A stretch of DNA of 41,517 nucleotides, from assembly GCA_023659775.1 (NCBI GenBank), contig JAGXOS010000001.1:1-41517 (forward strand), given 5' to 3'. How positions within the stretch are numbered: the first letter of the stretch is position 1; the number at the start of each line of letters is the position of its first letter. The DNA is from Methanomicrobia archaeon LH_S14. Its GTDB lineage: Archaea > Halobacteriota > Syntropharchaeia > Alkanophagales > Methanospirareceae. Position numbers and translations under genes: made by a program. Shown piece by piece: positions 22,162 through 41,517 of the stretch. The notes below the pieces were generated by a model, which saw only the letters and a program-made list of their open reading frames with translations, was not told where the DNA came from and ran no database searches.

Positions 22162-22269
22162 AGTTCTCAGTTAATATTTCTTAATTATTAAATATATCTA
22201 CAATAAAAGAAGAATAAAAATTTAAATGCGTTTGCTATATATAATAAATTATCATCAAACGAAAGGGGT

Positions 22270-23874: not shown

Positions 23875-23883
23875 GGATGATAA

Positions 23884-24354: not shown

Positions 24355-24407
24355 GGAGGATGATGCAGGAGAGGAATGAAAATAAAAAGGAGAGGAACAA
24401 ATAAGAA

Positions 24408-24800
24408 ATGGAAAAGGGAAAGGAAAAGGAAAAGGAAAAGGTAAGAGTATTGTTGGTGGACGATTCTACATACATAAGGACGGTTCTTGGCAGCATAATA
24501 ACCGAGGCTGGATTTGAAGTCGCGGGTGAAGCCGCGGATGGCGAAGAGGCAATTCGGAAGTATATGAGCCTCAAACCCGACCTGGTATTGATGGACGTTA
24601 TAATGGAACCCATGAACGGAATGGAAGCGATGAAGGCGATACTTGATAAAGACCCTGAAGCGAAGATATTGATGGTTACGGTGCTGGAAGATAAAGACAT
24701 ACTTGCGGATTTGATGCGGATAGGAGCAAAAGGGTATATCACGAAACCATTTTCAAAAGATAAAATTGCAGAGAAAATAAAGGAGGTTCTGGGGGAATAA
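24408..24800 (+). CDS. cheY: Chemotaxis response regulator CheY
   Basis: Receiver domain with the LLVDDS, LVLMDVIMP-like and GYITKPF blocks. The N-terminal GKEKEKEK tail is encoded by a hexamer repeat. Confidence 0.9.
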   Translation: MEKGKEKEKEKVRVLLVDDSTYIRTVLGSIITEAGFEVAGEAADGEEAIRKYMSLKPDLVLMDVIMEPMNGMEAMKAILDKDPEAKILMVTVLEDKDILADLMRIGAKGYITKPFSKDKIAEKIKEVLGE

Positions 24801-24806
24801 AGGAGG

Positions 24807-25388
24807 ATGCAGGATACAGGATACAGGATACAGGATAATGGATTCGAAGAAGGAATGCTGGAGCAAATATTGAAGACCGCCGCTTTGAAGTCCCTGATTT
24901 ATTTGCAATTCTTTATTGGCAGACTGGTCAGAGCCGAATCGTTATCCATCCACTGGACAGCTCATCAATTAAGAATAGGAAAGGATTATGTTATCTCCAG
25001 GATAGAGTTAAGAGAGAAAAGTGAGCTGGTTGGAAATATATACCTCATATTTCCATTCGAAACAGCACGCCGACTTACAGAAGACATGTACGGGGAATTG
25101 ATTCCTGAGATTTATAAAAAACATGTTTTAGACATGGTCGAGGAGATGACCAATGTTGTTTCTGTTCCCCTCAGTGAGACCGCCACTTTTTTTTCACGTA
25201 ATACGCCTGTCCTTCCTTCGGTTGCTCATGTAGTCAGCTACGATGAGTTCAAATCTTTACCGTTAGCTGAGGCAGTGGCTTTAGAATTGAAAATGGACGG
25301 CGAAATGAACGGGAATATATACTTTGTGATGGAGGGAGGGACCGTAAAGAAACTAAAGAGAATGCTGAGAAGGAGGGAGAGGGAGTAA
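24807..25388 (+). CDS. CheC/CheX-like CheY-P phosphatase domain protein
   Basis: Position in the che operon and one D-x3-E-x2-N site (DMVEEMTN). The start is uncertain: ATG 24807 or ATG 24855. Confidence 0.55.
   Translation: MQDTGYRIQDNGFEEGMLEQILKTAALKSLIYLQFFIGRLVRAESLSIHWTAHQLRIGKDYVISRIELREKSELVGNIYLIFPFETARRLTEDMYGELIPEIYKKHVLDMVEEMTNVVSVPLSETATFFSRNTPVLPSVAHVVSYDEFKSLPLAEAVALELKMDGEMNGNIYFVMEGGTVKKLKRMLRRRERE
24810..24837. repeat. Perfect heptanucleotide tandem repeat (CAGGATA) x4
   Basis: Read directly from the sequence. It begins 3 nt after ATG 24807 of the cheC-like ORF. Confidence 0.95.
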
Positions 25389-26404
25389 TGATAAACGTGC
25401 TGGTGGTGGATGACTCATCACTGATGAGGAGGATGGTATCTGAAATGCTGAACTCGGCATCAAACATACGAGTTGTTGGCACTGCCAGAGACGGCATGGA
25501 TGCGGTGGAAAAAACAGAAAAACTCAGACCTGATGTTGTAACAATGGACGTAGAGATGCCGAGGATGGATGGATTAACCGCTTTGAGCTGCATAATGGCG
25601 AAAAACCCGGTACCTGTTGTGATGCTCACGGCAATGGGCAAAATAGAAGCTGACCTTGCCGTGAAGTCCTTTGAGTACGGCGCAGTGGACTTTGTATCAA
25701 AACCCAGCAAAACCATCTCGTTAGACATAGAAGAAGTAAAGAGTGAACTGATAAGCAAGGTCAGAGCTGCCTCAACAGTGAATGTGGAAAAAATGGTTTT
25801 CAAGGTTGTGGAAAGAAGATTGATAGAAAAACTGTTAATACCGCCGAAGACAGACAAAAAAGTCCTTATTGTCGGTGCCTCCACAGGAGGACCCCATGCA
25901 CTCTCAGAAATCATTCCGAAACTTCATAGAACCTTTCCTTTAGCTGTTTTGATTGTTCAGCACCTGCCAGTTGGGTTCACAAAAAGCTTTTCAGAACGAC
26001 TGAGCTGGCAGGGCTCTATCGCGTTGAAAGAAGCGGAAGATGGGGATGCCATAAAACCGGGTCAGGCATTCGTTGCTCCATCTGGTTATTATACCGTGGT
26101 AAAAAACGGTAGGATAGGATTAGATAAGCGACCAAAGGGGGATGGCATGAGAAGCATAGACATAGCAATGAAATCAGCAGCGGAAGCATACGAGGATAAG
26201 GTTATTGGCGTGCTGCTCAGCGGAATGGGAAAAGACGGCGCAGAGGGCATGCGGGCAATAAAGGAAAAAGGAGGCTCGACTATTGCGCAGGATGAGCTCA
26301 CAAGTGTTATATTTGGCATGCCGAAGGCAGCAATAGACATGGGTGTTGTGGACAAGGTTGCACCACTGCCTGACATTGTGGATGAAATAATAAGGATGCT
26401 ATAA
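25388..26404 (+). CDS. cheB: Chemotaxis methylesterase/response regulator CheB
   Basis: Receiver domain (VLVVDDS, VVTMDVEMP) plus methylesterase domain (GASTGGP, QHLP, GMGKDGA). Confidence 0.9.
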   Translation: MINVLVVDDSSLMRRMVSEMLNSASNIRVVGTARDGMDAVEKTEKLRPDVVTMDVEMPRMDGLTALSCIMAKNPVPVVMLTAMGKIEADLAVKSFEYGAVDFVSKPSKTISLDIEEVKSELISKVRAASTVNVEKMVFKVVERRLIEKLLIPPKTDKKVLIVGASTGGPHALSEIIPKLHRTFPLAVLIVQHLPVGFTKSFSERLSWQGSIALKEAEDGDAIKPGQAFVAPSGYYTVVKNGRIGLDKRPKGDGMRSIDIAMKSAAEAYEDKVIGVLLSGMGKDGAEGMRAIKEKGGSTIAQDELTSVIFGMPKAAIDMGVVDKVAPLPDIVDEIIRML

Positions 26405-26408
26405 AAGT

Positions 26409-26436
26409 CCTAAACCCTAATTTCTAAACCCTAAAC
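26409..26436. repeat. CTAAACC-type short repeats (CCTAAACCCTAATTTCTAAACCCTAAAC)
   Basis: Reverse complement of the GGTTTAG motif seen at 35170-35230 and 38344-38386. Confidence 0.7.
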
Positions 26437-26657
26437 AATATCAAAATCTCAAATCATAATATCAAAACTTATCTATCTACCCCCAATCTATTTAAAAGTC
26501 AGGAGGAGAAAAATGAAAGGAGTAATTGTACTTGCCTTAAGGGAAATGGTGATAGAGAATTTCTTTAAGAAAAAACAAACCTTTATTTCAACAGGAAAGT
26601 GTGTGACACCAGCCACTGAAGAATTTAAGTACTAATAACTTATATTATAAATTAACG

Positions 26658-26909
26658 GTGACGGAGATGGAGAAGATAAAAATCGAACCAAAGGAATTTT
26701 GGGAAGACAAAAAAAGGGCAGAGAAGAATTATCCTGATTTGCAGGAGAAGTATCCGGACAAATGGGTGGCGATAGTGGACAAAAAGGTTGTCGCTGCTGG
26801 CAAGAGCTTAAAGAACATCGAACTTGAAGCAGAGCATAAGACCGGCGTACCAAGAGATAGAATCCCTGCTATTTTCATAGAGGGCGAGGTGAATATCCTA
26901 TTTGAATAA
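26658..26909 (+). CDS. Small DUF5678-like protein
   Basis: 83 aa. The core YPDKWVAIVDKKVVAAGKSLKNIE matches the W-V-A-I-x-D-x-K-V-V pattern I associate with DUF5678. Family assignment is from memory only. Confidence 0.5.
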   Translation: MTEMEKIKIEPKEFWEDKKRAEKNYPDLQEKYPDKWVAIVDKKVVAAGKSLKNIELEAEHKTGVPRDRIPAIFIEGEVNILFE

Positions 26910-26924
26910 CGGTAATCCAATGAC

Positions 26925-27212
26925 ATGATAAAGCTATCTTTTATAGAATTACGGGATAGGAAGTTGGAAAAATTGGTCCCCGGGTATGGATACCTAACGA
27001 GATTGATTTGCAATACAAAGTTCAAGACGTTCAATGGCTGGACAAAAAGCCATGATGCCATCATCGACACTGGGGCTCACATTTCCATAATATTTGCTTA
27101 TCTTGCTTTAGATGAGGGTATGCCCCTAATCCTTGGTTTTAAAACCTTGTTAGAAGAAGTTAAGATTTGCTTTGACCATAAAGATAACGAGGCATGGCTT
27201 GAAAAACTGTGA
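26925..27212 (+). CDS. Retropepsin-like (clan AA) aspartic protease, short form
   Basis: AIIDTGAHISII contains the D-T-G-A catalytic signature, and PLILGFKTLLE resembles the C-terminal LLG block. At 95 aa it looks shorter than typical members. Confidence 0.5.
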   Translation: MIKLSFIELRDRKLEKLVPGYGYLTRLICNTKFKTFNGWTKSHDAIIDTGAHISIIFAYLALDEGMPLILGFKTLLEEVKICFDHKDNEAWLEKL

Positions 27213-27218
27213 ATAAAG

Positions 27219-28829
27219 ATGGTTGACGTATCAAAATATAAGGAACTGTTCGTAAACGAGTCAAGGGAGCATCTACAAAGTATAAGTATAAATCTGCTGA
27301 CGCTGGAGAAAGAGCCAGAGAACACAGACGCATTAAATGAAACGTTCAGAGCTGTGCACACACTGAAAAGCATGGCTGCCACAATGGGATATCCAGACAT
27401 GGAAGAACTATCGCATGAGATGGAGAACGTGCTTGACGTGCTGAGGAAAGGAAAGGAAATTGAGAAAGGAACAGTTGACGTTCTGTTAGAATGCCTTGGC
27501 GGGCTTGAAACGTTTGTCGAAGATGTTGCATCCGGAAAAACGGTCGAGCGTGATTTAACAGCGCTGTATAAAAAGCTGGATTATATTCTGCCGGAGAAAA
27601 AAGAAGGTGTTGAGGTATCACCCGTTAGGGCAGAAGAGAAAAGGGAGAGGGAAGAGACAGACAGGGGGGAAAAGGTCAGTCCTACAATAAGGATAAGCAT
27701 AGAAAAAATACAGGCATTGCAGAACCTTGCTGAGGAATTATCAATAGCAAAGTTGAGGCTTCTCCAGATAGCCTCAAAACATGCTATCGCCATCCCCGAA
27801 CTCAATGAGATAACGGCAACAACACACCGGCTCACGTCAGAACTACTGGATAGGGTAATGGAGATGCGCATGTTCCCGGTTGCATACGTATTTGACAGGT
27901 TTCCAAGAACCGTGCGGGACTTAAGCATGAAAACCGGTAAAGAAGTAGATTTCGAGGTATCTGGTAAGGAGATAGAACTTGACCGTCTTGTGCTTGACGA
28001 AATAAATGATGCAGTAATGCATCTGCTTCGTAATGCGGTGGACCATGGGATAGAAAAACCAGGGGAGAGGAAAAAGGCGGGGAAAAAGGATACGGGAAAG
28101 GTCATGTTGAGCGCGCGGAGAGAAGGGAACCACATTGTCGTATCAGTCGCGGATGATGGCAGAGGAATGGATATAGAAAAAATCAAAAAAATCGCAGTAG
28201 AAAGAAAAATCATAACCGGTGAGGAAGCATCAAGGATGAATGACGGGGACGTCTATGAACTCCTGGGTGCACCAGGGCTGAGCACAACAAAAAAAATTAC
28301 CGACGTTTCGGGCAGAGGCGTAGGTTTTGATGTGGTGAAATCAAAAATCAAATCACTGGGTGGAAGCGTCAGAATATCAACCGAAAAAGACAGGGGCACA
28401 AGCGTTGAATTGCGTCTGCCTTTGACTACCGCTATTATTCAATCTTTACTCGTTGGCGTGGAAGGAGAAAAATATGCCATTCCATTAGATTCTGTCAGGG
28501 AAATAGTGGCGGTGAGTGAAGAGGATTTGAAAAGCGTTGAAGGGAAAGAGATATTTAGCTACAGGGAACAGGTTCTGCCGCTGCGGAGACTGAAAAACAT
28601 TTTTGACGTCCCGGGAAACAAAGATAAAGATAGGATAGGTCCCGTTGTGGTGGTGGAAAGAGACGAAAAATTGTTTGGAATTATAGTTGGCACACTTATT
28701 GGTCAGCAGGAAACGGTAGTCAAGCCATTGGAAGGAATGCTCAAAGGCAAGAAAGAGTTTGCAGGTGCAACAATACTCGGCGATGGCTCGGTTGCGTTCA
28801 TCCTGGATGTAGGGGGGTTGATACAATAA
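27219..28829 (+). CDS. cheA: Chemotaxis histidine kinase CheA
   Basis: Hpt domain (FRAVHTLKSMAATMG), HATPase blocks (HLLRNAVDHGIE, DDGRGMD, GRGVGFDVV) and a C-terminal CheW-like domain. Confidence 0.9.
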   Translation: MVDVSKYKELFVNESREHLQSISINLLTLEKEPENTDALNETFRAVHTLKSMAATMGYPDMEELSHEMENVLDVLRKGKEIEKGTVDVLLECLGGLETFVEDVASGKTVERDLTALYKKLDYILPEKKEGVEVSPVRAEEKREREETDRGEKVSPTIRISIEKIQALQNLAEELSIAKLRLLQIASKHAIAIPELNEITATTHRLTSELLDRVMEMRMFPVAYVFDRFPRTVRDLSMKTGKEVDFEVSGKEIELDRLVLDEINDAVMHLLRNAVDHGIEKPGERKKAGKKDTGKVMLSARREGNHIVVSVADDGRGMDIEKIKKIAVERKIITGEEASRMNDGDVYELLGAPGLSTTKKITDVSGRGVGFDVVKSKIKSLGGSVRISTEKDRGTSVELRLPLTTAIIQSLLVGVEGEKYAIPLDSVREIVAVSEEDLKSVEGKEIFSYREQVLPLRRLKNIFDVPGNKDKDRIGPVVVVERDEKLFGIIVGTLIGQQETVVKPLEGMLKGKKEFAGATILGDGSVAFILDVGGLIQ

Positions 28830-28833
28830 AAGA

Positions 28834-28899
28834 AACCACGAGGGTTCACGAGATTAACACAGAGGAATGAAAAAGTATGAAACCACAAGAGATTGAAAT
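28834..28899. repeat. Cluster of degenerate AACCAC(A/G)AG-type repeats related to the 33-nt element
   Basis: AACCACGAGG, TTCACGAGATTAACACAGAGG (about 15 of 20 matches with one gap to copy 1) and AACCACAAGAGATTGAAAT. Confidence 0.5.
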
Positions 28900-28927
28900 T
28901 TAAAAATTGGTATTTGTTTAGCTCACC

Positions 28928-29597
28928 TCAAACAAAGTTCATTGGTGAGTAGAGCAATTCTTTGAGTTCATCGTACACATCTTTTCCTTGTAATCGCCAC
29001 GTAGCGAAGACTGAAGCTATGTATTGATAATATTCAGCGCCATTCTGGGATCTAAAGGCACCTATGATCTTCCGCATGAGCACATGTTCTCTTATAACCT
29101 GCTCGCTGAGATTGTTTGTTGGCTCCATTCCGGGGTAAAGGAGGCATGTATACCAGTTTCCCAAGCCGTTTCTGATATAAGCGTTCTTGCAGGCTTCTCC
29201 TACACGGAGGATTGCATCTTGAATGCCTTTAGGAGTGATATCAAAGGAATTGAGATGAGAAGCGAAATCCTTGATTCTCCGAAGAACACCACGGATGCTG
29301 AATTTCAACCATTGTTAGATACACAAGCAGGTTCACACCAAATCTACCCTTTTGAGGGCATTCTTCGTGCTTCGCTGTGAACTCATGCCCATAATCACAG
29401 CACTTATAAACGTGTCTGTTGAATTGGGTGACCTTAATTTTCGGTGGTGGCGGGATTTCCTCGATTATCTTTGTTAGCTCATCATTCTGTTCTTCAAGCT
29501 CCGCTATCTTTTCTTTCAGCTCCTCTATCTCCTTCATCGAAGCTTGATAATTGCTACACAGTGCCATTGGCATCTCAAAGTCCAATTCTTCGCTCAT
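28928..29597 (-). mobile_element. IS66-family transposase remnant with the central DDE domain deleted
   Basis: The N-terminal fragment has a leucine-zipper-like EELKEKIAELEEQNDELTKIIEE and a zinc-finger-like YKCCDYGHEF. The C-terminal fragment has PTNNLSEQVIREHVLMRKIIGAFRSQNGAE, typical of the IS66 C-terminus. The two ORFs overlap in different frames, and about 250 aa of catalytic core is absent. Confidence 0.6.
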
Positions 29598-29705
29598 TGT
29601 GTGCTTAGAGCATCTTTCATTTCTTATACTTAAATTTCCCGCAAATGAAAAAAAACCGAAAAGCTTTTAACGAGATAGGTAGCTATACAAATTAAAAAAT
29701 TGGAA

Positions 29706-30830
29706 ATGGAAAGAGAAGAAATCCTAAGTGCAATATATCATTGTGCAAAATGTAAGCTTTGCAGTATTGCGAGTTTTCACCCGAGTGAGGAATGGTTGCC
29801 TTTATGTCCAAGTGGAGAATTCTATGGCTATCAAGCATTCTACGCACCCGGCAAGTTAGAGATTTTTAGAGAAATATTGGAAGGTGAGCTATCAGAGCCT
29901 TCGGAGGGGTTATTGAAAGCCGTCTATTCGTGTACGTTATGTGGAGCGTGTTATGAGAAATGCAAGCAGATAACGAGTGTAGAAATAAGGTTGCCGGAAC
30001 TGTTTGAGGAACTGAGGGAAGAGATGGTAAAGAAAGGGTGGGCTCTCAACGTTCATAAAGACATTGCAAAAAAGATAAAAGAAACGAGGAATGCGTATGG
30101 TGAGAAATACAAATACGAAGCGGAATCAACCGACAGAAATGCAGATGTTCTCTATTATATTGGCTGCACTGCTCGCTACAGAGTGCCGGAGATTGCAGAT
30201 GCTATGCTGCAAATCTTTGATAAGTTTGGGATAAAATATCAGGTGATGGATGATGAATGGTGCTGTGGCTCGGTTTTGCTCAGAACCGGACAGGTAGAAG
30301 AGGCGAAGGAACTTATGGAACATAATGTCGAAGAAATAAAAAGGAGTGGTGCGAAGACCGTTGTTTTCACCTGTCCTGGATGTTTGATGACGTTCGAGAA
30401 GAATTACCCGGATATGGGTGTCGAACTGGTGCATTCCACGCAGTTCTTAACACGATTGAAAGGCATGAAAGTGAAGAAGCTGGATATGGAGGTGGCTTAT
30501 CACGACCCTTGCCATTTGGGAAGAGATTTAGGCATCTACGAAGAGCCAAGAGCGGTTTTAAAAGAAGTAGCGAATGTGAAAGAAATGAAAAGGGAGAGGG
30601 AGCAAGCGTGGTGTTGTGGTTCAGGTGGTGGGGTAAAATCGGCATTTGATGAGTTCGCACTGTGGAGTGCCGTAGAACGAATAAAAGAAGCGAAAGAAGC
30701 GGGTGCTGAGGCACTCGTCAGTGCATGCCCGTTCTGTAAAAGGAACTTGAGAGAAGCGGCGGAAAAAGAAGGAAAGGGAATGAAAGTATATGATGTTGTA
30801 GAACTTGTAAACAGGAGTTTGGAGGAATGA
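29706..30830 (+). CDS. Fe-S oxidoreductase with two CCG domains (GlcF/HdrD/LutA-like)
   Basis: Two 4Fe-4S motifs (CAKCKLC, CTLCGACYEKC) and two CCG motifs (WCCGS, WCCGSGGG). TTG 29700 is an alternative start. Confidence 0.8.
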   Translation: MEREEILSAIYHCAKCKLCSIASFHPSEEWLPLCPSGEFYGYQAFYAPGKLEIFREILEGELSEPSEGLLKAVYSCTLCGACYEKCKQITSVEIRLPELFEELREEMVKKGWALNVHKDIAKKIKETRNAYGEKYKYEAESTDRNADVLYYIGCTARYRVPEIADAMLQIFDKFGIKYQVMDDEWCCGSVLLRTGQVEEAKELMEHNVEEIKRSGAKTVVFTCPGCLMTFEKNYPDMGVELVHSTQFLTRLKGMKVKKLDMEVAYHDPCHLGRDLGIYEEPRAVLKEVANVKEMKREREQAWCCGSGGGVKSAFDEFALWSAVERIKEAKEAGAEALVSACPFCKRNLREAAEKEGKGMKVYDVVELVNRSLEE

Positions 30831-32254
30831 TGAAGACGAATGAAACACAAACTTTCTTAAAGTTTGTGCAGGCGATAGTAGGAGAAGAGAACGCAACAAA
30901 CGACAGAGCCATCTGTGCCTCTTATTCAAGAGACCAGCACTGGCACTTTGTACCCGCGAAAAATCCCGCATACGTTGTGCGGCCCGCGAACAAAGAAGAA
31001 GTGAGGAAGGTTTTAATGCTTGCGAACAAGGAGAAAATACCGGTGATACCTTACAGTACGGGCATAAATGTACGCGGATTGACCATTCCCGTCCACAAGG
31101 GCAGTATTCTGTTGGACCTGTCGCGGATGAACCGAATCATGGAAATAAATCCAGAGATGAAGACTGCGACAGTGGAGCCCGGCGTGACCTTCGGGATGCT
31201 GCTTGAAAAGACAATGAAATACAAGCTTAGACCTGCATTCCCGGATGCGCCGCTTACAGTAAGCGTACTGGCGAATTACTATTTGCGCGGGATCTATCAA
31301 ACTTCGGCAGTGGACGGTCATGACCACACGTTGTCGTATGAGATGGTTCTTCCAAATGGAGAGATAATAAAAACAGGGTCGAGGTCGCTTTCCGAGATGC
31401 CTTATTTCCGATACGGTGTGGGTCCTGATTTCACCGGTCTTTTCTGCGCTCATCCCGGCACGTGCGGCGTGGTGACTGAATTGACCGCAAAGCTTTACCG
31501 GTTGTATGACAACCGAAAAGTTTACTTCGTGGGCTTTGACGATGTGAACACACCGACGAAATTTATTTACAATTTGATGAACGACGAATTAGCTGCGAGT
31601 ATCAGGTTAGTAGATAATCAGAGCTGGTTGAAAGGGATCTGCGGCACTTTTGATTACGCCTACGAGAAGCTACCGAAGTTCGTTTTGTGCATGTTGGTGG
31701 AAGGAGTAGATGGGATATTCGAGGCGAAGGATAAGTTAGTGCGTTCATACATAAAAGAATCAGGCGGAAAGGTTTTGGAATTTCCGGAGGAGTTCAAAAG
31801 GACCTTCGAGGAAGAGAGCTTAGGTGGTGCGGAGAAGAGCAGCATGGTGTTTGGCTTAAGGGGTAATTACCACTGCATAGGGCTGTATGGACCTTTAACG
31901 CTGGCTGCAAAGTATTATGACTTGCATGAAAAGACGGCATTGGAGGTTGGAATACCAAAGGACCACGTTCATTTCTATCTCAACCCGATATACAATTTTC
32001 ACGGACAGCTTTGTTATTTTGAACTTGATATATTTTATGACGGAAGCGATTTGGGATTTGGAGAGAAGTTAAGGAATTATAACCAGAAGCAATTCCAGAG
32101 GTTGCTTGACCTGGGCATCTATGGCTGGTTCAGACCTTATGCAGGGATAATAGAGCCGACGGTGGATCGAATAGGGTATCTTGGAGAGGTCTGGAAGAAC
32201 TTCCTCAAGGTTCTGGATCCGAATAAGATTATGAACAGGGGGAAACTATTCTAA
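30827..32254 (+). CDS. FAD-linked oxidase (GlcD/D-lactate dehydrogenase-like)
   Basis: 475 aa with FAD_binding_4-like N-terminal half (VVRPANKEEV..IPVIPYSTGINVRG). ATGA overlap with the upstream Fe-S gene. Confidence 0.75.
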   Translation: MMKTNETQTFLKFVQAIVGEENATNDRAICASYSRDQHWHFVPAKNPAYVVRPANKEEVRKVLMLANKEKIPVIPYSTGINVRGLTIPVHKGSILLDLSRMNRIMEINPEMKTATVEPGVTFGMLLEKTMKYKLRPAFPDAPLTVSVLANYYLRGIYQTSAVDGHDHTLSYEMVLPNGEIIKTGSRSLSEMPYFRYGVGPDFTGLFCAHPGTCGVVTELTAKLYRLYDNRKVYFVGFDDVNTPTKFIYNLMNDELAASIRLVDNQSWLKGICGTFDYAYEKLPKFVLCMLVEGVDGIFEAKDKLVRSYIKESGGKVLEFPEEFKRTFEEESLGGAEKSSMVFGLRGNYHCIGLYGPLTLAAKYYDLHEKTALEVGIPKDHVHFYLNPIYNFHGQLCYFELDIFYDGSDLGFGEKLRNYNQKQFQRLLDLGIYGWFRPYAGIIEPTVDRIGYLGEVWKNFLKVLDPNKIMNRGKLF

Positions 32255-32511
32255 CAATTCGCAACCTTTTTCTGATATATTCCCTCCCTCGCATTCACAG
32301 GAATAAACAATTCTGTGGGCTCTCTTTTCAGAAGCATCGCGTAATCTTTGCATGAATCCACGTTGTTCGCCCTCATCCGAATGGCAAGCCTTCTTTTTAC
32401 ATAATTATCCCGGTATTGGTTGCAATCAAATCCCTTATCCTTGAGTATCTGCCTTTTTAGAACTTTAAAATCCCTGTCCTGATCAGGGATTAAATTTTTA
32501 TCGGTTATCAT
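32251..32511 (-). pseudogene. cheR: N-terminal fragment of chemotaxis methyltransferase CheR
   Basis: DFKVLKRQILKDKGFDCNQYRDNYVKRRLAIRMRANNVDSCKDYAMLLKREPTE matches the CheR_N helical domain. The SAM-dependent catalytic domain is absent. The ORF ends where the convergent FAD oxidase gene ends. Confidence 0.6.
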
Positions 32512-33313
32512 GAAGAAGTATGAACTTTTCCACGACTTCAACCCAGCCTTCCGGTCCCTCACCTTTCGCTTTATAAAGGTTTGGCTGTGAAACATCAAGC
32601 CATGCACCCTTTTTGTTCTTCACCAGCGCTGGCTGCTCCACCGCTTTCAACATCGGAATATCATTCATGCTGTCTCCGACACCTATGGTCTTCACTTCTC
32701 CATATCCCCTCTTGAAGAGCTCTGTGAGAATCCTCACCGCTTTCCCTTTGTCCGCGTTCTTACCGTGAATGTTGTAGTATCTACCACCGTGAGAGATATT
32801 AAATCCCTTTTCTTTGATTTTCGCAAACAAAATAGCCTCCTTCTCTTCTGGTTCACCAAAAATGAAACTCTCATTGTATTCCTTTTCCTTCGCAAGTTTC
32901 GCCATCTCTACACTTAAATTCGCATCTTCTGCAACCTCTTCCGCCGTCATATCGCCAAACCCCGTTATTTTAAATCCCGTCTCCTCTCTGAGTTCCTTCA
33001 AGGCTTCCTTTAACTCACCATACGAAGCACCAAGTTCAACAATGCAGTAATTCCCCCTTCTTTTACACTCAAAAACGAATGAGAAGTAATTCTCAGGAAT
33101 GAAAATCGCTCCACCGTTCTCTACGATAAACGGGTCTTCCATCCCCATCGCTTTCCGGTAATATTCGTTCTCTGCTAACGTTTTCGCCGTGCAAAACACG
33201 ACCGGGATATTTCTCTTCTTCAAGGCTTCCAGAGCCGGAAGCGCAGCATCGTAAGAATAGTCAAAGAGGTCAAGCAGAGTTCCATCAAGGTCTGTGAAAA
33301 GAATTTCTTTCAT
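32498..33313 (-). CDS. mpgP: Mannosyl-3-phosphoglycerate phosphatase (HAD-IIB)
   Basis: LFTDLDGTLLD, GVGDSMNDIPM, and position directly downstream of mpgS with an ATGA overlap. Confidence 0.8.
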   Translation of the reverse strand: MKEILFTDLDGTLLDLFDYSYDAALPALEALKKRNIPVVFCTAKTLAENEYYRKAMGMEDPFIVENGGAIFIPENYFSFVFECKRRGNYCIVELGASYGELKEALKELREETGFKITGFGDMTAEEVAEDANLSVEMAKLAKEKEYNESFIFGEPEEKEAILFAKIKEKGFNISHGGRYYNIHGKNADKGKAVRILTELFKRGYGEVKTIGVGDSMNDIPMLKAVEQPALVKNKKGAWLDVSQPNLYKAKGEGPEGWVEVVEKFILLHDNR

Positions 33314-33488
33314 GTGCTTATTTGAAAAGTTTCTCCACTCAAATCCTCCTTCTTTTCTACTTCACACCCGATAGCCCCTTGTTCACACCTTACAAACATT
33401 TCTGAATTGCTTTCCAGTAATTTTATAAATTTACTTGCATCAATCCTCCCCCCAATAGGGGGCATTATGAAGTTCTCCTTTGGCTTTT

Positions 33489-33671
33489 CCCCGGTATCCA
33501 GAATATCTTTCAGCTCATCAAGCACTTTTGACCTTACGTAATCATTGCATAGCTTACTGTAGTAAATCGCACTGAGTGAACCAAGCAGCATGTTCTTAAC
33601 ATGCTCCTCTCCTTTTTCCTCGTGTATGTGTGGATTTAACGTCTCTATCTGAAAAATCTCAATTCCTGCAC
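33489..33671. repeat. Direct repeat copy A (183 nt) inside mpgS
   Basis: Base-for-base identical to 33704-33886. Confidence 0.95.
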
Positions 33672-33703
33672 ACCCATCTCTTCCAGCCCATCAAAATTCA
33701 AAA

Positions 33704-33886
33704 CCCCGGTATCCAGAATATCTTTCAGCTCATCAAGCACTTTTGACCTTACGTAATCATTGCATAGCTTACTGTAGTAAATCGCACTGAGTGAACCAAG
33801 CAGCATGTTCTTAACATGCTCCTCTCCTTTTTCCTCGTGTATGTGTGGATTTAACGTCTCTATCTGAAAAATCTCAATTCCTGCAC
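33704..33886. repeat. Direct repeat copy B (183 nt) inside mpgS
   Basis: Base-for-base identical to 33489-33671. Confidence 0.95.
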
Positions 33887-34843
33887 TTGCAGCATCTGGA
33901 TACGCTATATCTTCCGCTTTCAGCCCGAACTCATCAAACAAATAAACGTAGTGGTAGGGTTCGATTGAAAAGCCGGTCGAATAACATAATAAATCCGCGA
34001 GCTTTGTTGTCAGTGCATGCTCGCCCGCATTTCCCGTTATCACAACTCCGGTCTCAAATCCTGTGTTTGTTGATAGCAGAAGATTGAGATACTTGTTTGT
34101 GGCCTCGCTTACCCTGCCCCACTTTTTGAAATAAAGTTTGTCCTCCACCACCTTTGGCTTATATCTCCAGTGAAGCCTCACCATGCTGTATGGCGACTCA
34201 GACATACAGAATCCTGCTGCATAATCCATCACGTACTCACGCACAGCACCCGGGATGTAGTTGTCGGCATCAGCAAACCCGATAAAATCTTTTCCAAGTG
34301 ATTTTGCAAGCAGCATGCCTATAATCATACCCTCCGACTTCCCATCCCTGACCAATCCATCCTTATCAAGAAGGAAGTCATAACCAGCTTCGTAAAAAGC
34401 AAATCCCAATTCAGGGTCTTTCTGATGCACGATGAGAATTTCTTGCTGTGTAAGGTTATGGATATTTGTTATCGTATCCATTTCCATTTTGTATATATCA
34501 TGTGCATCCCTATCGCTGTTTGAAACCACAATAACAGAACAATCAAAGGGAATTGCTCTTAAAACACCGTCCAACAAATGTATATTTTCATCTTTTACCG
34601 GTATGACGATTGCAAGACGCCTTAAAACATTTTTGATTTCTTCAAAAGAGATGTCTTTTGCCCTTGGATTTTCAAAACCGCCGGAATCGAGTTTTAATAC
34701 ACGCTGTAGCTCGTGAATTTTCACCGAGCCGAAGATTTCTGTATACCTTGGCATTTCGATAAGCATTTTCTACACCTCTACTAATTATTTGTTTTCATCA
34801 TATATATATAACATGATGATAAATTTATGCTGAGGAAGAAAAA

Positions 34844-35170
34844 ATGCCACGTTCACATGGAGAGAGGAAAAGAACGAGAAAAAAGTTGAGTAAGAGAAAA
34901 AGAGAGCGGGGGCTGTCTCCAATAAGCAGAGCCATCCAAAGCTTTGAGCCCGATGAAAGGGTGCATATCCGTATAGACCCAAGCGTCCACAAAGGTATGC
35001 CGCATCAAAGATTTCACGGCTTGACTGGCAAGGTGAAAGAGGAGCGAGGAAGAGCGTATATCGTGGAGGTATCAGATGGGCGGCGGAAAAAGGACTTGTT
35101 TGTGCGTGCGGAGCATTTGAGCCCGCAAGCCAAATCACAGCCAATAGCCAATAGCCAAGCAGCCAAATAG
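34844..35170 (+). CDS. rpl21e: 50S ribosomal protein L21e
   Basis: MPRSHGERKRTRKKLSKR...HKGMPHQRFHGLTGKV. The C-terminal tail SQPIANSQAAK is encoded by AGCCAAT repeats. Confidence 0.9.
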   Translation: MPRSHGERKRTRKKLSKRKRERGLSPISRAIQSFEPDERVHIRIDPSVHKGMPHQRFHGLTGKVKEERGRAYIVEVSDGRRKKDLFVRAEHLSPQAKSQPIANSQAAK

Positions 35171-35300
35171 GGATTAGGGGTTAGCGGTTTAGCTATTTAG
35201 CGGTTTAGAAGTTAGCGTGTTAGCCAGTTAGATAACTAAGTCTCTAATCTGCTTAACGCGCATATACCCCATACCCTACTGGCTATTCCCTATTGGCTGA
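35138..35300. repeat. Long imperfect palindrome built from AGCCAAT and GGTTTAGC-type short repeats
   Basis: The left arm CAGCCAATAGCCAATAGCCA...TAGGGATTAGGGG pairs with the reverse complement of 35262-35300 (CAGCCAATAGGGAATAGCCAGTAGGGTATGGGG). The interior is GGTTAGC GGTTTAGC TATTTAGC GGTTTAGA AGTTAGC GTGTTAGC CAGTTAGA. Confidence 0.7.
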
Positions 35301-35310
35301 GTGTGAGTGA

Positions 35311-35383
35311 TGGGCCCGATGCGATTCGAACGCATGACCTCCGCCTCGTCAAGGCGACGTCATTCCAGCTAGACCACGGGCCC
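35311..35383 (-). tRNA. tRNA-Val (anticodon GAC)
   Basis: Hand-folded. Acceptor GGGCCCG/CGGGCCC, anticodon stem TCGCC/GGCGG with loop TTGACGA, T arm ATGCG-TTCGAAT-CGCAT. Confidence 0.85.
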
Positions 35384-35403
35384 ACGAGTATGGATTTTTA
35401 TAG

Positions 35404-35413
35404 TTATAATAAA
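35404..35413 (-). promoter_or_regulatory. Candidate TATA box of tRNA-Val
   Basis: TTTATTATAA on the minus strand at -30 to -21 relative to the tRNA 5' end. Confidence 0.4.
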
Positions 35414-35737
35414 CAGATGCTTATAAAATTTATTTTTTATTTCCACAATTTTGACAATAAGGCATTTCATATCTGACAGGGAAACCGCACCATGAACCAC
35501 TTTCCACACGTTCTCGATAATCATGTACATCAATAAAAGAGATGCAAAAGCCATGAACGCATTGGCATGAATGATGTATTTGCTCCTCGTCTTTTTGGCT
35601 TTTAAGAACGCGATGATAGCAACCACCAGTAATGGGAGCAGAAAAGCCAATATTTTCTCATCTTCATATTCCGGCATGATTACTGAAAGTTATTATCGGA
35701 TTATAAAGATATAATTACTGAAAGGAGATTTTCCATA

Positions 35738-36667
35738 ATGAAAAAAGGAGCAGATTACGATTTAATTGTTGTTGGAGCGGGTCCTGCCGGGATGACCGCT
35801 GGGATGTATGGTGTGAGAAGCGGATTGGAAACATTAGTGGTTGAGAAAGGAATATGCGGCGGATTATCAAATGAGGCGCCAGAGATAGAGAACTACCCGG
35901 GATTCAAGAAGGTGGGAGGAATGGAACTGGCGGAAAAGATGAAAGAGCAAGCCTCGGAATACGTGGAGATAAAAGAGCTGGAAGCAGTTAAAAGAATAGA
36001 GCTTATGGAGAAAGAGATGAGGGTATTCACGGAAAAAGGTTCTTATCTCACAAATGCGGTGGTAATAAGCACGGGAACTAAACACAGGAGATTAGGCGTG
36101 AAAGGGGAAGAAGGATTTCTTGGAAGAGGCATATCTTATTGTGCTACCTGTGATGGTTTCTTCTTCAGAGATAAGCCCGTAATAGTGGTAGGAGGAGGGG
36201 ACTCAGCAGTTAGAGAAGCCCTGTATTTGAGAAATATCGGCTGCGAGGTGACGCTGATTCACAGAAGGGGGGAACTCAGAGCAGAGCGGTATTTACAAAA
36301 GAATCTGGAAGAGACAGGTGTGCATATTCTGTGGAATTCAGTGGTGAAAGAGATAAAGGGGGATAAAGCGGTGAGGGGCGTTGTCAGATATGATAAAAAG
36401 AAAGAGATTGAGGATGAGCTCCCGGTAGAAGGTGTGTTTGTATCTATTGGTGAAGAGCCAGTCAATGAATTAGCCGTGCAAATGGGAATTATGATGGATA
36501 AAAACGGATACATAATCGTAGATAAAAGTCAGAGGACGAACCTCGAGCGAGTATACGCCGCAGGGGACATAACTGGAGGAGTAAGACAAGTAGTGGTGGC
36601 ATGTGCGGAAGGCGCAATCGCTGCTACCGCTGCATATAATGATTTATTGGAGTTTAGCGTGAAATGA
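35738..36667 (+). CDS. trxB: Thioredoxin reductase
   Basis: DLIVVGAGPAGMTAG, redox motif CATCDG, second dinucleotide fold VVGGGDSA. Confidence 0.9.
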   Translation: MKKGADYDLIVVGAGPAGMTAGMYGVRSGLETLVVEKGICGGLSNEAPEIENYPGFKKVGGMELAEKMKEQASEYVEIKELEAVKRIELMEKEMRVFTEKGSYLTNAVVISTGTKHRRLGVKGEEGFLGRGISYCATCDGFFFRDKPVIVVGGGDSAVREALYLRNIGCEVTLIHRRGELRAERYLQKNLEETGVHILWNSVVKEIKGDKAVRGVVRYDKKKEIEDELPVEGVFVSIGEEPVNELAVQMGIMMDKNGYIIVDKSQRTNLERVYAAGDITGGVRQVVVACAEGAIAATAAYNDLLEFSVK

Positions 36668-37332
36668 GGGAGATAGGGATTGACGAGGCGGGAAAAGGTC
36701 CGGTAATAGGGTCAATGTTTGTTGCCGGGGTTTTGAATTTTGATGGGCTGGAAGAGATGGGTGTGCGGGATTCGAAGCGATTAAGCCCCTCGAGGAGAGA
36801 ATATCTGGCGAACCTTATAGAAGAAGCGACTGAGGTTCATGTCGTGGAGATGACCGCAAGCGAGATAGACGAGGGTAGAAAGAGGCATACTTTAAATGAA
36901 ATCATGGTCGAACTTTTTTCAGCAGTGATTATGCATTTTCAGCCGGATAGAGCTTTTGTGGATGCGGCGGATGTAAAAACAGAGCGGTTCGCTGCTAATC
37001 TCAGGTCGAACTACGAAATGGAAAGGGAGGAGGGAGAAAAAGAAATTGAACTAATTTCTGAATCTAAAGCGGATGAACGCTACCCGGTGGTCAGTGCAGC
37101 ATCCATAGTTGCAAAAGTGCATCGGGATAGGTCAGTAAGGCAGCTCGAGGCGGAGATAGGAGTAGAGATAGGAAGTGGGTATCCTGCGGACCCGAAAACC
37201 ATCCAATTCCTGAAAGCGCTGCTAAAAGAAAAAGAACAGGAAAACATTCCAGCCTATGTGAGGCGCTCTTGGAAAACTGTCGAAAGAAATCTTTCTTCAA
37301 TAAACTCTTCTTTTGTAAAGCAAAGTCTCTAA
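36664..37332 (+). CDS. rnhB: Ribonuclease HII
   Basis: IGIDEAGKGPVIG, DSKRLSP, and ASIVAK near the C-terminus. ATGA overlap with trxB. Confidence 0.9.
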   Translation: MREIGIDEAGKGPVIGSMFVAGVLNFDGLEEMGVRDSKRLSPSRREYLANLIEEATEVHVVEMTASEIDEGRKRHTLNEIMVELFSAVIMHFQPDRAFVDAADVKTERFAANLRSNYEMEREEGEKEIELISESKADERYPVVSAASIVAKVHRDRSVRQLEAEIGVEIGSGYPADPKTIQFLKALLKEKEQENIPAYVRRSWKTVERNLSSINSSFVKQSL

Positions 37333-37368
37333 GGGGTAAGTTCATTCGTTTACATTGTTATATACTTA

Positions 37369-38343
37369 ATGTCAACAAATAAGCGAAAAATGGTAGCCCT
37401 GAAGAAGGATAATGAAGAGGGAGAGGATAAGAAGAAAGGGAAAGAAAAAGACAGTGCCGCTGGTTTACAGGATATAAAAGAATGCCCTGAGTGTGGCTCT
37501 AAGAGTTTGGTAAGAGACTATAATAAAGCGGAGATTTTTTGTGCCAATTGCGGGCTGGTGATAGCAGAGAACATCGTGGACCCTGGACCTGAGTGGCGTG
37601 CCTTCGACTCTGAACAGATGTCCAGGAGGGCGAGGGTCGGGGCACCGATGACTTATCGAATACATGATAAAGGACTGAGTACGATCGTCACGTGGGGTTC
37701 GCCGGGTCAAAGGCAATATAAGTTAAAGAAATGGCAACAGCGGACACATATTGCGAATACAACAGAAAGGAGCTTTATTTTCGCTCTTTCTGAGATAGAT
37801 CGGATGGCATGTGCGCTTAAACTACCGGTAAATATCAGGGAGGCGGCGTCTATGTTATATCGGAAGGCGATGAAGAAACATTTGATTCGCGGGCGAAGCA
37901 TAGAAGGTATAACTTCTGCATTCTTGTACATTACATGTAGACAGTATGGAGTGCCTCGAACACTGGAAGAGGTCAGAGAAATATCAAGAGTTGGACAAAA
38001 GGAAATAAGTCGAGCATATCGCTTTCTTTTACGTGAACTCGACTTGAAGGTTTCGCCTGCTTCTCCCATTGAGTTCGTGCCTCGTTTCTGCTCCATGCTC
38101 AATTTGAGTAGTGAGATAAGGGCACATGCAATAGAGATAATAAAGAAGGCGGCGGAAGCGGAACTAACTAACGGGCGAGGACCGATAGGGATAGCGGCTG
38201 CTGCTATTTACATCGCTGCGATTTTAAGCGGTGAGCATCGGACACAAAAGGAGGTATCGGATGTTACGGGTGTGACCGAGGTTACAATCCGGAACAGGTA
38301 TAAAGAATTATCAGAGCAGTTAGAGATAGATGTGCTTTTATAG
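37369..38343 (+). CDS. tfb: Transcription initiation factor IIB (TFB)
   Basis: Zinc ribbon CPECGS..FCANCG and two cyclin-like repeats. A K/E-rich N-terminal extension is present. ATG 37390 is an alternative, possibly leaderless start about 25 nt downstream of TTATATAC. Confidence 0.9.
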
Positions 38344-38610
38344 TGGTTTAGAAAGTCAGCGGTTTAGCGGTTTAGCGGGTTTAGAATTTATTTTGGAGTA
38401 GAAGGAGGACAGCATTTTTGAAAGTTCTTCTATTTTTGAAGATAGATTACTAAAGTTGTCTTCTTGAATAAAACCCAACTTATGTGCGATAATTCCTTAA
38501 AACTCTTCATCGTTAATCCTTCCTTTTCGGTAGATTATAAGTTTGTCTTTTTAGCAGCGTAGTCTTTCGGCTCTAAACCGCTAATCCACTAAGCCTCTAA
38601 ACCGCTTCTC
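38344..38610. repeat. Inverted arrays of GGTTTAGC-type repeats flanking about 180 nt between convergent tfb and the DUF99 gene
   Basis: Left array TGGTTTAGAAAGTCAGCGGTTTAGCGGTTTAGCGGGTTTAGAA (38344-38386). The right array 38571-38610 has reverse complement GAGAAGCGGTTTAGAGGCTTAGTGGATTAGCGGTTTAGAG. Confidence 0.7.
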
Positions 38611-39170
38611 AAGGCTGCCCTCGCTGCTATTTTCGCAACCCGTAATGGTTCGGGCACTTTTCCATGAGTGGTGAATTTTTTAAGCAGCACCGCAGCTTCG
38701 CTTTTTTCCATACCCCAAAACCGTATTAAAACATCGAAATTGTTATGCAATCTCACAGGAATACGATTTACAAGTCTCTTATACGCTTCTATCCGGTTAT
38801 CTCGCTCACGGGCTTCAAAATGCCTGGCTATGTGTCTCTCCAGGCCCTCAGATTCTTCGTAAGTCACACAGATGAGAGGAATCCCAAGCATTTCATACAC
38901 CTCCTTTATATCTACAATGTTAAACCAACTGATGACACATCCATTTAACATCATTACATTTATGTCAGCGCGTCGCAGCGATTCGAAGACGTGCAGCACT
39001 CCTTCTGTGGCGTCCATCCCCCCTACGGTTATCTTATCAAAAGCGACGCCGTCTATAATAAAATCGGAACGCATAACGATGCCAGCAAGCACTGATTTCT
39101 CATGGGCTCTCCTGAAGCTTTCTGCAATGCCGAGTACCCTTATCCCCTTTTTATTTACGTGTAAGGTCAT
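38589..39170 (-). CDS. UPF0215/DUF99 family protein (EndoV-like fold)
   Basis: 193 aa. The blocks IRVLGIAESF and VAFDKITVGGMDATE match the DUF99 pattern as I recall it. Confidence 0.7.
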   Translation of the reverse strand: MTLHVNKKGIRVLGIAESFRRAHEKSVLAGIVMRSDFIIDGVAFDKITVGGMDATEGVLHVFESLRRADINVMMLNGCVISWFNIVDIKEVYEMLGIPLICVTYEESEGLERHIARHFEARERDNRIEAYKRLVNRIPVRLHNNFDVLIRFWGMEKSEAAVLLKKFTTHGKVPEPLRVAKIAARAALRSGLEA

Positions 39171-39176
39171 ATAAAA

Positions 39177-39662
39177 TTATAGATACGATTTGCTCTCCCT
39201 CTCTTTTTGCTCTTTATATCTTCTTCTTGAAATTGGGTCACTGCTCATCCGCTCTATTTCCATATCTAACTTGTCGTCCAACTTCGCTTGCTTTTCTGAG
39301 ATATATTCCTTGCACAGTGTATAAGTGGAATCGGAAGAATATTGCTGAACGCCAGCCATTATAATCGCTAAATCCGGTTTTTTCTGTGGAGAAATCAAGC
39401 CAAACGGGACTGGCGCACCTATCCTCAGAAGCTTTTTTATCTCATCATCCATTTTCCCTACTTCCAAGCCAAATCCTATTGCCTCATTGCTCCCGGTCTG
39501 TTCCATCTTTAGCTGCCATATACGCTCAGGGCTGGAGATGAACATGTCATACCTACCTTTTGGATTCCTCCCGGTTAGTACTCTCCATTCTTCCTTATCT
39601 TTGCTTTTGTTCCACTTCTCTTTTAATATCCGCGTTATTTCAGCAGAAGACTTTGTTCCCAT
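39177..39662 (-). CDS. Hypothetical protein (161 aa)
   Basis: Clean ORF with proteome-like composition. No family recognised. Confidence 0.5.
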   Translation of the reverse strand: MGTKSSAEITRILKEKWNKSKDKEEWRVLTGRNPKGRYDMFISSPERIWQLKMEQTGSNEAIGFGLEVGKMDDEIKKLLRIGAPVPFGLISPQKKPDLAIIMAGVQQYSSDSTYTLCKEYISEKQAKLDDKLDMEIERMSSDPISRRRYKEQKERESKSYL

Positions 39663-39735
39663 TTCTTTTGTATTGCCTCCAAATGTATACTACCCATGTA
39701 TAAATAAGCATTACTAACATATAAAGCTGAACAAA

Positions 39736-39821
39736 CGCCAGGGTCAGGATTTGAACCTGAGCGTCCCTTACGGGACAGTGACTCTCGAGGCCACCGCATT
39801 TGTCCACTCTGCCACCCTGGC
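39736..39821 (-). tRNA. tRNA-Ser (anticodon CGA)
   Basis: Hand-folded. Acceptor GCCAGGG/CCCTGGC, anticodon stem GTGGC/GTCAC with loop CTCGAGA, long variable arm TCCC-GTAA-GGGA, T arm TCAGG-TTCAAAT-CCTGA. Confidence 0.85.
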
Positions 39822-39834
39822 ATCGTCACACTCT

Positions 39835-40434
39835 TTAAAAAAAGGGTTTCACAAGGAAAGCAATAAGCTGACCGAAATATATCAGAAGGGTGGACCGGAT
39901 AAAAGTGCCAATAACCACCGCAAGCCAGGTCATTAAAGGCGGCATTCCTATTAGCCTACCCACTACGGCGCCCACAACACCTCCTGCCGCGAATGGGAAT
40001 ATAACTAAAACGACAACACCTATAAACCCAAATCTCTTCGCCCATTTATATTTCCTTATTGCTTTTTCTCCACCTTCCTCTGCCCTTTCTACAAGTTTTC
40101 CTAAACCTGGTATTTTCTTTGCGTAATCGAAGTTCCAGACTAAAAACAAAGCAAGAACGGCATCAGTGAAAACAACAAAGGATATAAAAGATACTGGGGG
40201 AAGTGTTAACCCCGCAGGAATAGCAGCTACCGCACCACCAACAGGCATGAGTGAATAAGAAACAAACACCGCTGCATATTTTGCAGATACCTCTGGCTCA
40301 ACGAAGAACCAGAAGAATAGCAGTGTAGCGCCCGCGATGCAAAAAGGAATAACGAGTTTGGCTAAAGCTATTTTCTTCATCTGTATTACCATCTCCATCT
40401 TTTCCTTCACATCCATTTCCATTTCTTTTAGCAT
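39835..40434 (-). CDS. Polytopic membrane protein (possibly small multidrug export / COG2426-like)
   Basis: 199 aa with about 5 hydrophobic helices. The family call is tentative. Confidence 0.5.
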   Translation of the reverse strand: MLKEMEMDVKEKMEMVIQMKKIALAKLVIPFCIAGATLLFFWFFVEPEVSAKYAAVFVSYSLMPVGGAVAAIPAGLTLPPVSFISFVVFTDAVLALFLVWNFDYAKKIPGLGKLVERAEEGGEKAIRKYKWAKRFGFIGVVVLVIFPFAAGGVVGAVVGRLIGMPPLMTWLAVVIGTFIRSTLLIYFGQLIAFLVKPFF

Positions 40435-40451
40435 CGTGGTTTTTACCTTTG

Positions 40452-40464
40452 GTATATAAATAAG
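40452..40464 (+). promoter_or_regulatory. Candidate TATA box for the MBL-fold gene
   Basis: GTATATAAATAAG lies about 40 nt upstream of ATG 40499, with AAGGAG 7 nt before the ATG. Confidence 0.4.
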
Positions 40465-40498
40465 AAATTATCAGATATAAAATAAAAGGAGAAGAAGA

Positions 40499-41155
40499 AT
40501 GAAACTAAGAATTGTGTACGATAACGAGGCGAAGGGAGGGTTAGAGAGCGACTGGGGGTTTTCATGTCTGATCGAAGCAGAGAAAAAAATACTATTTGAC
40601 ACCGGGGCATCAGGCGAGATTTTATCGCATAACATGCAGTGGTTAGGGATAAGAAAAGAAGACATCGAAATTATTGCACTATCGCACGAGCACTGGGACC
40701 ACATTGGTGGTCTTGATGCTGTGTTACACCAAAATGTCGCTGTGTATATACCCAGTTCCTTCTCGATGGGGACGAAGAAAAGGATTGAAGAAAGTGCTGC
40801 GGAAGTATTAGAGGTATCAGGACCTGCGGATATTGTTTCTGGAGTTCATACAACAGGAGAGCTTGGGATAGGGATTAAGGAGCAGTCATTGGTTTTGGAA
40901 ACAAAGGGAAGCGAAGGTGTAATTGTTTTAACCGGATGTGCACATCCGGGTTTGGAAACCATTTTGGAGGCTGCAAAGGTTTTCGGTGAACTATACGGTG
41001 TGATAGGTGGTTTTCACGGGTTCGATAAGTTAGAATTATTGAAAGAATTGAAAATGATAGTACCCTGTCATTGCACCGTGCGTAAGGAAGAGATAATGAG
41101 GATGTATCAGGAAAAAGCGGTATGGTGTGGAGCTGGGGAAATAATAGAGATTTAG
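40499..41155 (+). CDS. MBL-fold metallo-hydrolase (MJ0301-like family)
   Basis: KLRIVYDNEA...FSCLIEAEKKILFDTG...ALSHEHWDHIGGL, which contains the HxHxDH zinc motif. Confidence 0.8.
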   Translation: MKLRIVYDNEAKGGLESDWGFSCLIEAEKKILFDTGASGEILSHNMQWLGIRKEDIEIIALSHEHWDHIGGLDAVLHQNVAVYIPSSFSMGTKKRIEESAAEVLEVSGPADIVSGVHTTGELGIGIKEQSLVLETKGSEGVIVLTGCAHPGLETILEAAKVFGELYGVIGGFHGFDKLELLKELKMIVPCHCTVRKEEIMRMYQEKAVWCGAGEIIEI

Positions 41156-41168
41156 TAAAAGTGATTTT

Positions 41169-41462
41169 TTACCTTCGGCTCCTCCTCCTTCCTCTTCTCA
41201 TTCTCCTCGCTCTTCTCATTTTCCTCATTTCTTCTTTTCTTTTACATTTATCGCATACGAAATATATCCTCGTTTCATCTTCAGTGCCGCAAACGCCCGC
41301 AGCTACATCATCTAATGTCACTTCTTTAATCTGTTCAACTATCTCATCCGATAAATCCTCTTTTCCACATTTAAAACACTTATACAGTGAACCGGTAACC
41401 TCAACACTGTCAAGGTCACCCAAAATATAGCTGAATTCTTCGAATTCTCCTGGTATCCTCAA
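41169..41462 (-). CDS. Small zinc-ribbon protein with an Arg-rich C-terminal tail
   Basis: Two CxxC pairs (CFKCG, CDKCK). The tail is KMRRARRMRRGRRRSRR. No family recognised. Confidence 0.45.
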   Translation of the reverse strand: MRIPGEFEEFSYILGDLDSVEVTGSLYKCFKCGKEDLSDEIVEQIKEVTLDDVAAGVCGTEDETRIYFVCDKCKRKEEMRKMRRARRMRRGRRRSRR

Positions 41463-41517
41463 GCCTTTGTAACTGTTACAGTTTAGCTACCTTTATATAG
41501 TCTTATGTATATCTAAT

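Follow-up and report, generated by a model that had tools for sequence, protein, structure and literature searches.

Chimeras formed by phi29 polymerase in MDA reactions are inverted in 85% of cases, with most join sites less than 10 kb apart, and complementarity of 2 nt or more is present in 93.5% of the inverted chimeras whose sites lie within 10 kb of each other (Lasken & Stockwell 2007, PMC1855051). The rate in that study was of the order of 1 chimera per ~20 kb of sequence. In cells, switching of the FoSTeS/MMBIR type is known from structural variants of human and model organisms, where microhomology at both breakpoints accompanies a short, nearby-templated insert and a small tandem gain (PMC8654963). 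The locus described here lies within a window of 41,517 nt (41.5 kb), which is the whole stretch of DNA that was analysed, and shares features with both systems. To our knowledge, no template-switch rearrangement of the FoSTeS/MMBIR type has been established in ANME or other uncultured archaea.

A repeat comparison across the 41.5-kb window was used to delimit the following features in mpgS, the mannosyl-3-phosphoglycerate synthase gene, and in rnhB, the RNase HII gene.

33489..33671, minus strand: repeat copy 1, 183 nt, coding for MpgS from within ...AGIEIFQIETLNPH... as far as ...DILDTG

33672..33703, minus strand: filler, 32 nt, the reverse complement of rnhB 36731-36762

33704..33886, minus strand: repeat copy 2, 183 nt, identical to copy 1

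33668..33671: microhomology GCAC at junction 1, common to the repeat end and the rnhB antisense strand

33704..33709: microhomology CCCCGG at junction 2, common to the repeat start and the rnhB antisense strand

36725..36766, plus strand: donor 42-mer in rnhB, encoding GVLNFDGLEEMGV

Junction 31-mers of the duplicated form: TCAATTCCTGCACACCCATCTCTTCCAGCCC and CATCAAAATTCAAAACCCCGGTATCCAGAAT

Segments 33489-33671 and 33704-33886 were identical base for base over 183 nt each and were separated by the 32-nt filler (33672-33703), as the earlier note on this DNA had described. Together with the flanking GCAC and CCCCGG, the filler makes up a 42-mer (33668-33709), and its exact reverse complementarity to 36725-36766 within rnhB, also proposed there, was reproduced. 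When imperfect complementarity was included, the match between mpgS and rnhB lengthened to 51 nt at 94% (33659-33709 vs 36725-36775), and the left junction was found to lie inside a 13-nt patch (33659-33671) with 10 of 13 positions matching (TCAATTCCTGCAC vs TCGAATCCCGCAC). Only two copies of the filler were present in the window, one in mpgS and one in rnhB, with 0 expected from shuffles; besides the 183-nt pair the window held no further long repeat.

Both microhomologies pre-exist in the native gene, in agreement with what had been proposed from the contig. Native mpgS reads ...CCTGCAC/TTGCAG at junction 1 in contig L002 of the independent assembly described below, and ...GGCTTTT/CCCCGG at junction 2 in both the window and L002 (slashes mark the junctions). 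By our own calculation for random joins, the chance of microhomology is ~0.016 for at least 4 nt and ~0.0013 for at least 6 nt, with a joint value of ~2e-5. No unusual DNA hairpin was detected on either strand at the three breakpoint regions (z-scores −0.25 to 0.79), and a structure-induced stall at the breakpoints has no hairpin support.

The genes affected by the duplication, together with the neighbouring gene mpgP and the donor gene, were located as follows.

33645..34766, minus strand: truncated mpgS ORF, 373 aa, comprising 354 native and 19 foreign or frameshifted residues and ending in ...DILDTGVLNFDGLEEMGVQELRFFR and a stop codon

33310..33591, minus strand: 93-aa ORF holding the last 59 native MpgS residues, with an ATGA overlap with mpgP

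32498..33313, minus strand: mpgP, mannosyl-3-phosphoglycerate phosphatase (TIGR02461, 265 bits vs cutoff 244)

36664..37332, plus strand: rnhB, RNase HII (TIGR00729, 196.6 bits vs cutoff 123; PF01351)

Deletion of the 215-nt unit in silico restored an uninterrupted 413-aa mannosyl-3-phosphoglycerate synthase ORF on the minus strand. The reconstructed protein scored 515 bits against TIGR02460 (cutoff 351) over profile positions 2-382 of 383, and is accordingly a full-length member of TIGR02460 and PF09488; it could also be aligned over its whole length to 2ZU7, the solved structure of P. horikoshii MpgS (E=2e-141). The truncated ORF matched TIGR02460 at profile positions 2-351 of 383 only. The earlier note was therefore right that, in the contig as deposited, the 215-nt unit shifts the MpgS frame (leaving 354 native plus 19 other residues) and strands about 59 C-terminal residues in the small ORF that overlaps mpgP. 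All of its statements on the sequence were borne out.

Other genes of the window were noted in passing. An 879-aa protein of the GH38 alpha-mannosidase family is encoded at 19522-22161 on the minus strand, 12 kb from mpgS and mpgP. The E. coli mannosylglycerate hydrolase MngB is likewise a GH38 enzyme of similar size; by analogy, the window protein might serve the mannosylglycerate pathway as its catabolic partner. Directly downstream of mpgP lies a 118-aa ORF (32251-32607, minus strand) that matches only the CheR N-terminal all-alpha domain PF03705. No methyltransferase domain follows it, since a gene on the opposite strand already ends at 32254; a full che cluster occupies ~22.3-28.8 kb of the same window. 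Either cheR has been truncated here or CheR_N exists as a stand-alone protein.

The MpgS and RNase HII proteins were compared with those of related genomes. The source organism is an ANME-1/Methanophagales archaeon, as were all the best MpgS relatives, and the closest protein was 97% identical over 413 aa. A 2-kb JGI contig of this closest relative was 97.8% identical at the DNA level and carried the single-copy form. Within the species-representative genome set the MpgS match was uninterrupted in 66 related loci, in line with the undisrupted form that the earlier note had expected. In seven of these 66 loci rnhB lies ~2 kb from mpgS on the opposite strand, and the peptide that the 42-mer specifies in RNase HII, GV(L/S)NF(D/E)GLE..GV, is kept in those seven. 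Because this peptide is conserved in the relatives' RNase HII, the rnhB copy is native and the mpgS copy derived. The 32-nt filler had 0 matches in a metagenome contig collection; this result and the two copies in the window support the view that rnhB is its sole source. The earlier note had allowed for a multi-copy element as the source of the 42-mer; the 42-mer proved to be single-copy rnhB coding sequence.

In one related locus (6001-7413 of the locus from genome G37ANME1) 405 query residues are matched by an mpgS region of 1413 nt, and a 482-aa homologue (P0074) exists. Judged from these sequences, some ANME-1 MpgS proteins appear to carry ~66 additional residues as a natural insertion. 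A search of the literature on ANME-1 and mannosylglycerate found nothing relevant.

Exact protein look-ups placed each window protein that was found in a single sequencing run, SRR14170923. Contigs of that run were taken from Logan, in which reads are assembled by a k=31 de Bruijn procedure that drops once-seen k-mers, applies SPAdes-like simplification and lets no 31-mer occur twice (PMC12424806). Five Logan contigs, together covering 32.4 kb, were 100.000% identical to the window, free of mismatches, and free of gaps apart from the 215-nt unit.

L071: window 2174-10332, 100% match

L070: window 16655-28982, 100% match

L002 (Logan SRR14170923_640, 4781 nt): window 29208-34203 without the 215-nt unit

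L003: window 34344-38483, 100% match

L072: window 38454-41492, 100% match

Since the exact proteins were seen in that run only and five contigs matched without mismatch, the window was very probably assembled from the SRR14170923 reads or from the same sample. Two window proteins (12432-13796 and 359-1168) had no match in the exact look-up, probably owing to different start calls, and ~9 kb of the window lies outside the Logan comparison. A gap of 140 nt separates L002 from L003 (window 34204-34343) and lies where the catalytic region of MpgS is most conserved (GKSEGMIIG...FADADNYIPGAV); it likely results from 31-mers shared with co-occurring ANME-1 populations.

Short repeats of other kinds were observed elsewhere in the window. 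Arrays of the 7-8-nt unit GGTTTAG(C) / CCTAAAC occur at 35139-35231, 38345-38384, 38573-38603 and 26409-26436, just past gene 3' ends, and follow the L21e gene, tfb, a minus-strand gene ending at 38589, and cheB. GGTTTAG was counted 14 times in the window vs 4.4 expected, and no shuffle reached 14; from its placement, the unit may be a lineage-specific 3'-end or terminator-associated motif. A 41-nt inverted repeat with 90% complementarity (14579-14619 and 16651-16691) brackets the hisB (IGPD) and RFC-like AAA genes. The end of L070 at 16655, inside one arm, suggests further copies of this repeat in the sample.

The reverse complement of L002 was equal to window 29208-33671 joined to 33887-34203, exactly and over 4781 of 4781 bases. 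Logan contigs could never display the duplication as such, because no 31-mer can occur twice in them, and the behaviour of the assembly graph was examined for this reason. In the k=31 graph of the 41.5-kb window itself, branching nodes occurred at the repeat edges (33489, 33671, 33704 and 33886), at the edges of the filler and at either end of the rnhB 42-mer, and nowhere else. Had the junction k-mers been present at coverage like that of the flanks, the contigs would stop at these nodes. L002 passes both repeat edges unbroken and L003 passes the rnhB 42-mer unbroken; the junction k-mers are therefore absent from SRR14170923 or present at low coverage. Low coverage presumably means below roughly a quarter of the neighbouring coverage, which is how we take Minia pruning to operate, and this figure is an inference and not a measurement. 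The allele fraction was deduced from assembler behaviour alone. In SRR14170923, the only public read set with this strain, these comparisons show the prevailing mpgS allele to be the intact one of 413 aa. The main claim of the earlier note, that mpgS is broken in the organism, is not supported, as L002 equals the window minus 215 nt and four more contigs match at 100%. The junction 23-mer had 0 matches in the metagenome and genome contig collections and the broken products of 373 and 93 aa are on record in no assembly, results that carry little weight as evidence.

The presence of two perfect copies in the contig was addressed by a graph analysis of the window at k=55 to 141. Over this range only the repeat edges branched, giving a simple loop of repeat, filler and repeat, and the independent assembly lacks the second copy. 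At k > 42, reads carrying the junctions would form this simple loop, and an assembler that kept it would thread it once and so write out two copies. The copies are then one graph edge traversed twice; their identity is forced by the graph and is silent on the age of the event. The earlier inference of a very recent event from the 100% identity is thus unsafe, the copies being identical by construction for k=55 to 141. The locus resembles known cases of loop threading and repeat collapse in de Bruijn graphs in that the 183-nt repeat exceeds the usual k, the copies share one edge and the k=31 assembly is single-copy. It differs in that the edge closing the loop needs genuine junction-bearing reads. 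An assembler cannot join sequences across overlaps of 4 and 6 nt, and hence some sequenced molecule carried both junctions. The fallback offered in the earlier note, an assembly chimera, came closer to the truth than its main reading, but it must be amended, as an assembler cannot invent such joins and a molecule is needed.

On the most likely reading of these results, two template switches produced the duplication, only a minority of the sequenced molecules carry it, and the assembler threaded it once into the contig. Both breakpoints carry microhomology (GCAC, 4 nt, and CCCCGG, 6 nt), and the insert is templated, with 32 nt copied in a known direction from native rnhB; on both counts the event is FoSTeS/MMBIR-like. 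These features support the template switching proposed in the earlier note, and from their sequence the junctions look like polymerase switches primed by annealing, not like ligations or assembler joins. A blunt ligation chimera was rejected on the joint microhomology value of ~2e-5, and copying by a diversity-generating or other retroelement was likewise rejected as a reading. As read from the junctions, a polymerase copying mpgS would have left its template after ...CCTGCAC, and the 3' end would have re-annealed through GCAC, inside the 10/13 patch, to the opposite strand of rnhB 3,015 nt away. Copying of 32 nt of rnhB, ending in CCCCGG, would then have allowed re-annealing through CCCCGG to an mpgS position 183 nt before the one where copying had left off, and continued synthesis would have copied 183 nt twice. 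Two switches within one synthesis event would be the simplest path. The class of mechanism is already known, whether in the tube or in cells.

As to where the minority molecule was made, the anatomy of the junctions suits in vivo template switching and phi29/MDA chimeras equally well, and the sequence by itself does not separate the two. By analogy with described chimeras, we lean slightly towards an origin in the tube over one in cells, through phi29/MDA-type or similar amplification, and put its probability at roughly 45%. Both joins are inverted-strand switches between sites 3 kb apart, the typical MDA pattern: the two sites lie on opposite strands at a distance of 3,015 nt, well inside 10 kb, and are joined through complementarity of 4 and 6 nt, where priming by 4-6 nt belongs to the dominant class described by Lasken & Stockwell (2007, PMC1855051). 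The chimeras of that study are two-segment, whereas the net outcome here is a direct duplication, made by a pair of switches spaced 38 nt apart. The low numbers of the five Logan contigs (38 to 640) weakly hint at a small set of low complexity, for example an amplified sorted sample. Two points weigh against amplification. In an unamplified library, identical double-junction chimeras would be too rare to pass the coverage filters of an assembler, which would favour an allele of a subpopulation; and phi29 polymerase is highly processive, so that an excursion of 38 nt requires a second template that ends there.

A genuine minority allele, present in part of the ANME-1 population or among polyploid genome copies and knocking out MpgS in that subpopulation, is a possible but less probable source of the same molecules. 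It would have arisen by a FoSTeS/MMBIR double template switch, or by abortive strand invasion followed by microhomology end joining, as a 215-nt tandem duplication with a templated insert, and it would revert precisely when its 183-nt repeats recombined. The junctions look no different under this explanation, and two switches 38 nt apart suit repair synthesis of low processivity. Precedent comes from other organisms, in which small tandem duplications that combine microhomology with a templated insert have been described in vivo (PMC8654963). The resemblance extends to the microhomology at both breakpoints, the short insert templated nearby and the small tandem gain; it stops at the fact that the present case is known from a contig sequence and that the intact allele prevails in the same read set. 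A recurrent junction that passes assembler filters is more easily obtained from a real allele than from one-off library chimeras, and an intact L002 is what a mixed population would give. Set against this, the junction appears in no independent assembly, the k=31 assembly having pruned it or never seen it; the donor is 3 kb away on the opposite strand, where it is not obvious that an archaeal fork would offer a single-stranded template; and mpgS is conserved and intact in 66 of 66 related loci.

That the duplication is fixed in the genome and mpgS a recent pseudogene, the main reading of the earlier note, is improbable. The contig as given does contain the duplication, and an intact-looking L002 alone is no proof of a single copy, as Logan contigs cannot represent a duplicated 31-mer. 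A fixed duplication would give the junctions flank-like coverage and would break the k=31 contigs at 33489, 33671, 33886 and 36725-36766, through all of which L002 and L003 run. Since the exact proteins occur in one run only, it is also unlikely that the window came from another sample in which the allele is fixed.

A pure software artefact (misjoin, scaffolding, gap filling or polishing), with no molecule carrying the junctions, is very improbable, even though assembly pipelines do make perfect near-tandem duplicates. A scan for near-tandem perfect repeats in 72 related loci and the window gave as its notable hits two scaffold-gap artefacts, which are not analogues of the present case. In two ANME-1 MAGs (L009, 4483-4780, and L010, 3127-3480), perfect duplicates of 99 nt and 127 nt flank gaps of 100 N; these are assembly artefacts in public genome records, left by contig overlaps of length k that were never merged. 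They are like the window locus in being perfect near-tandem duplicates in ANME-1 genomes, and unlike it in consisting of k-length overlaps around 100 N, where the window has a templated 32-nt filler with microhomologies. De Bruijn assemblers output only k-mers that are present in the reads. The filler is real sequence from 3 kb away, the overlaps of 4 and 6 nt are far below any k and have the joint chance of ~2e-5 given above, and 183 nt is not a usual value of k.

A multi-step or element-driven origin is scarcely credible: an inverted piece between two direct copies does recall remodelled tandem inversion duplications, as reportedly seen in Salmonella lac work, but a trimmed tandem inversion duplication (with two deletions) requires three events instead of one and its inverted piece would here come from 3 kb outside the 183-nt duplicated segment, while a small multi-copy element with a long target duplication is contradicted by a 32-mer that is single-copy, conserved rnhB coding sequence with two copies in the window and none in the metagenome collection, and by a window that holds no terminal repeats, transposase or further copy.

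The class of error is recognisable from the sequence: the repeat is perfect and longer than k, the filler is short and templated from the opposite strand within a few kb, and each join shows microhomology of a few nt. If the duplication were a true allele of a subpopulation, it would be a neat and unsurprising case of template-switch mutagenesis in an uncultured archaeon. It would then document a replication-based, microhomology-primed double template switch in an archaeon, and the knockout would be reversible, because the 183-nt repeats permit precise reversion. That such an allele exists in part of the ANME-1 population, as an unstable and reversible on/off variant of mannosylglycerate synthesis, is somewhat unlikely. 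The case serves chiefly as a caution: taken at face value, the contig would have mpgS called a pseudogene and mannosylglycerate synthesis recorded as lost in an ANME-1 lineage; in the independent assembly the gene is intact.
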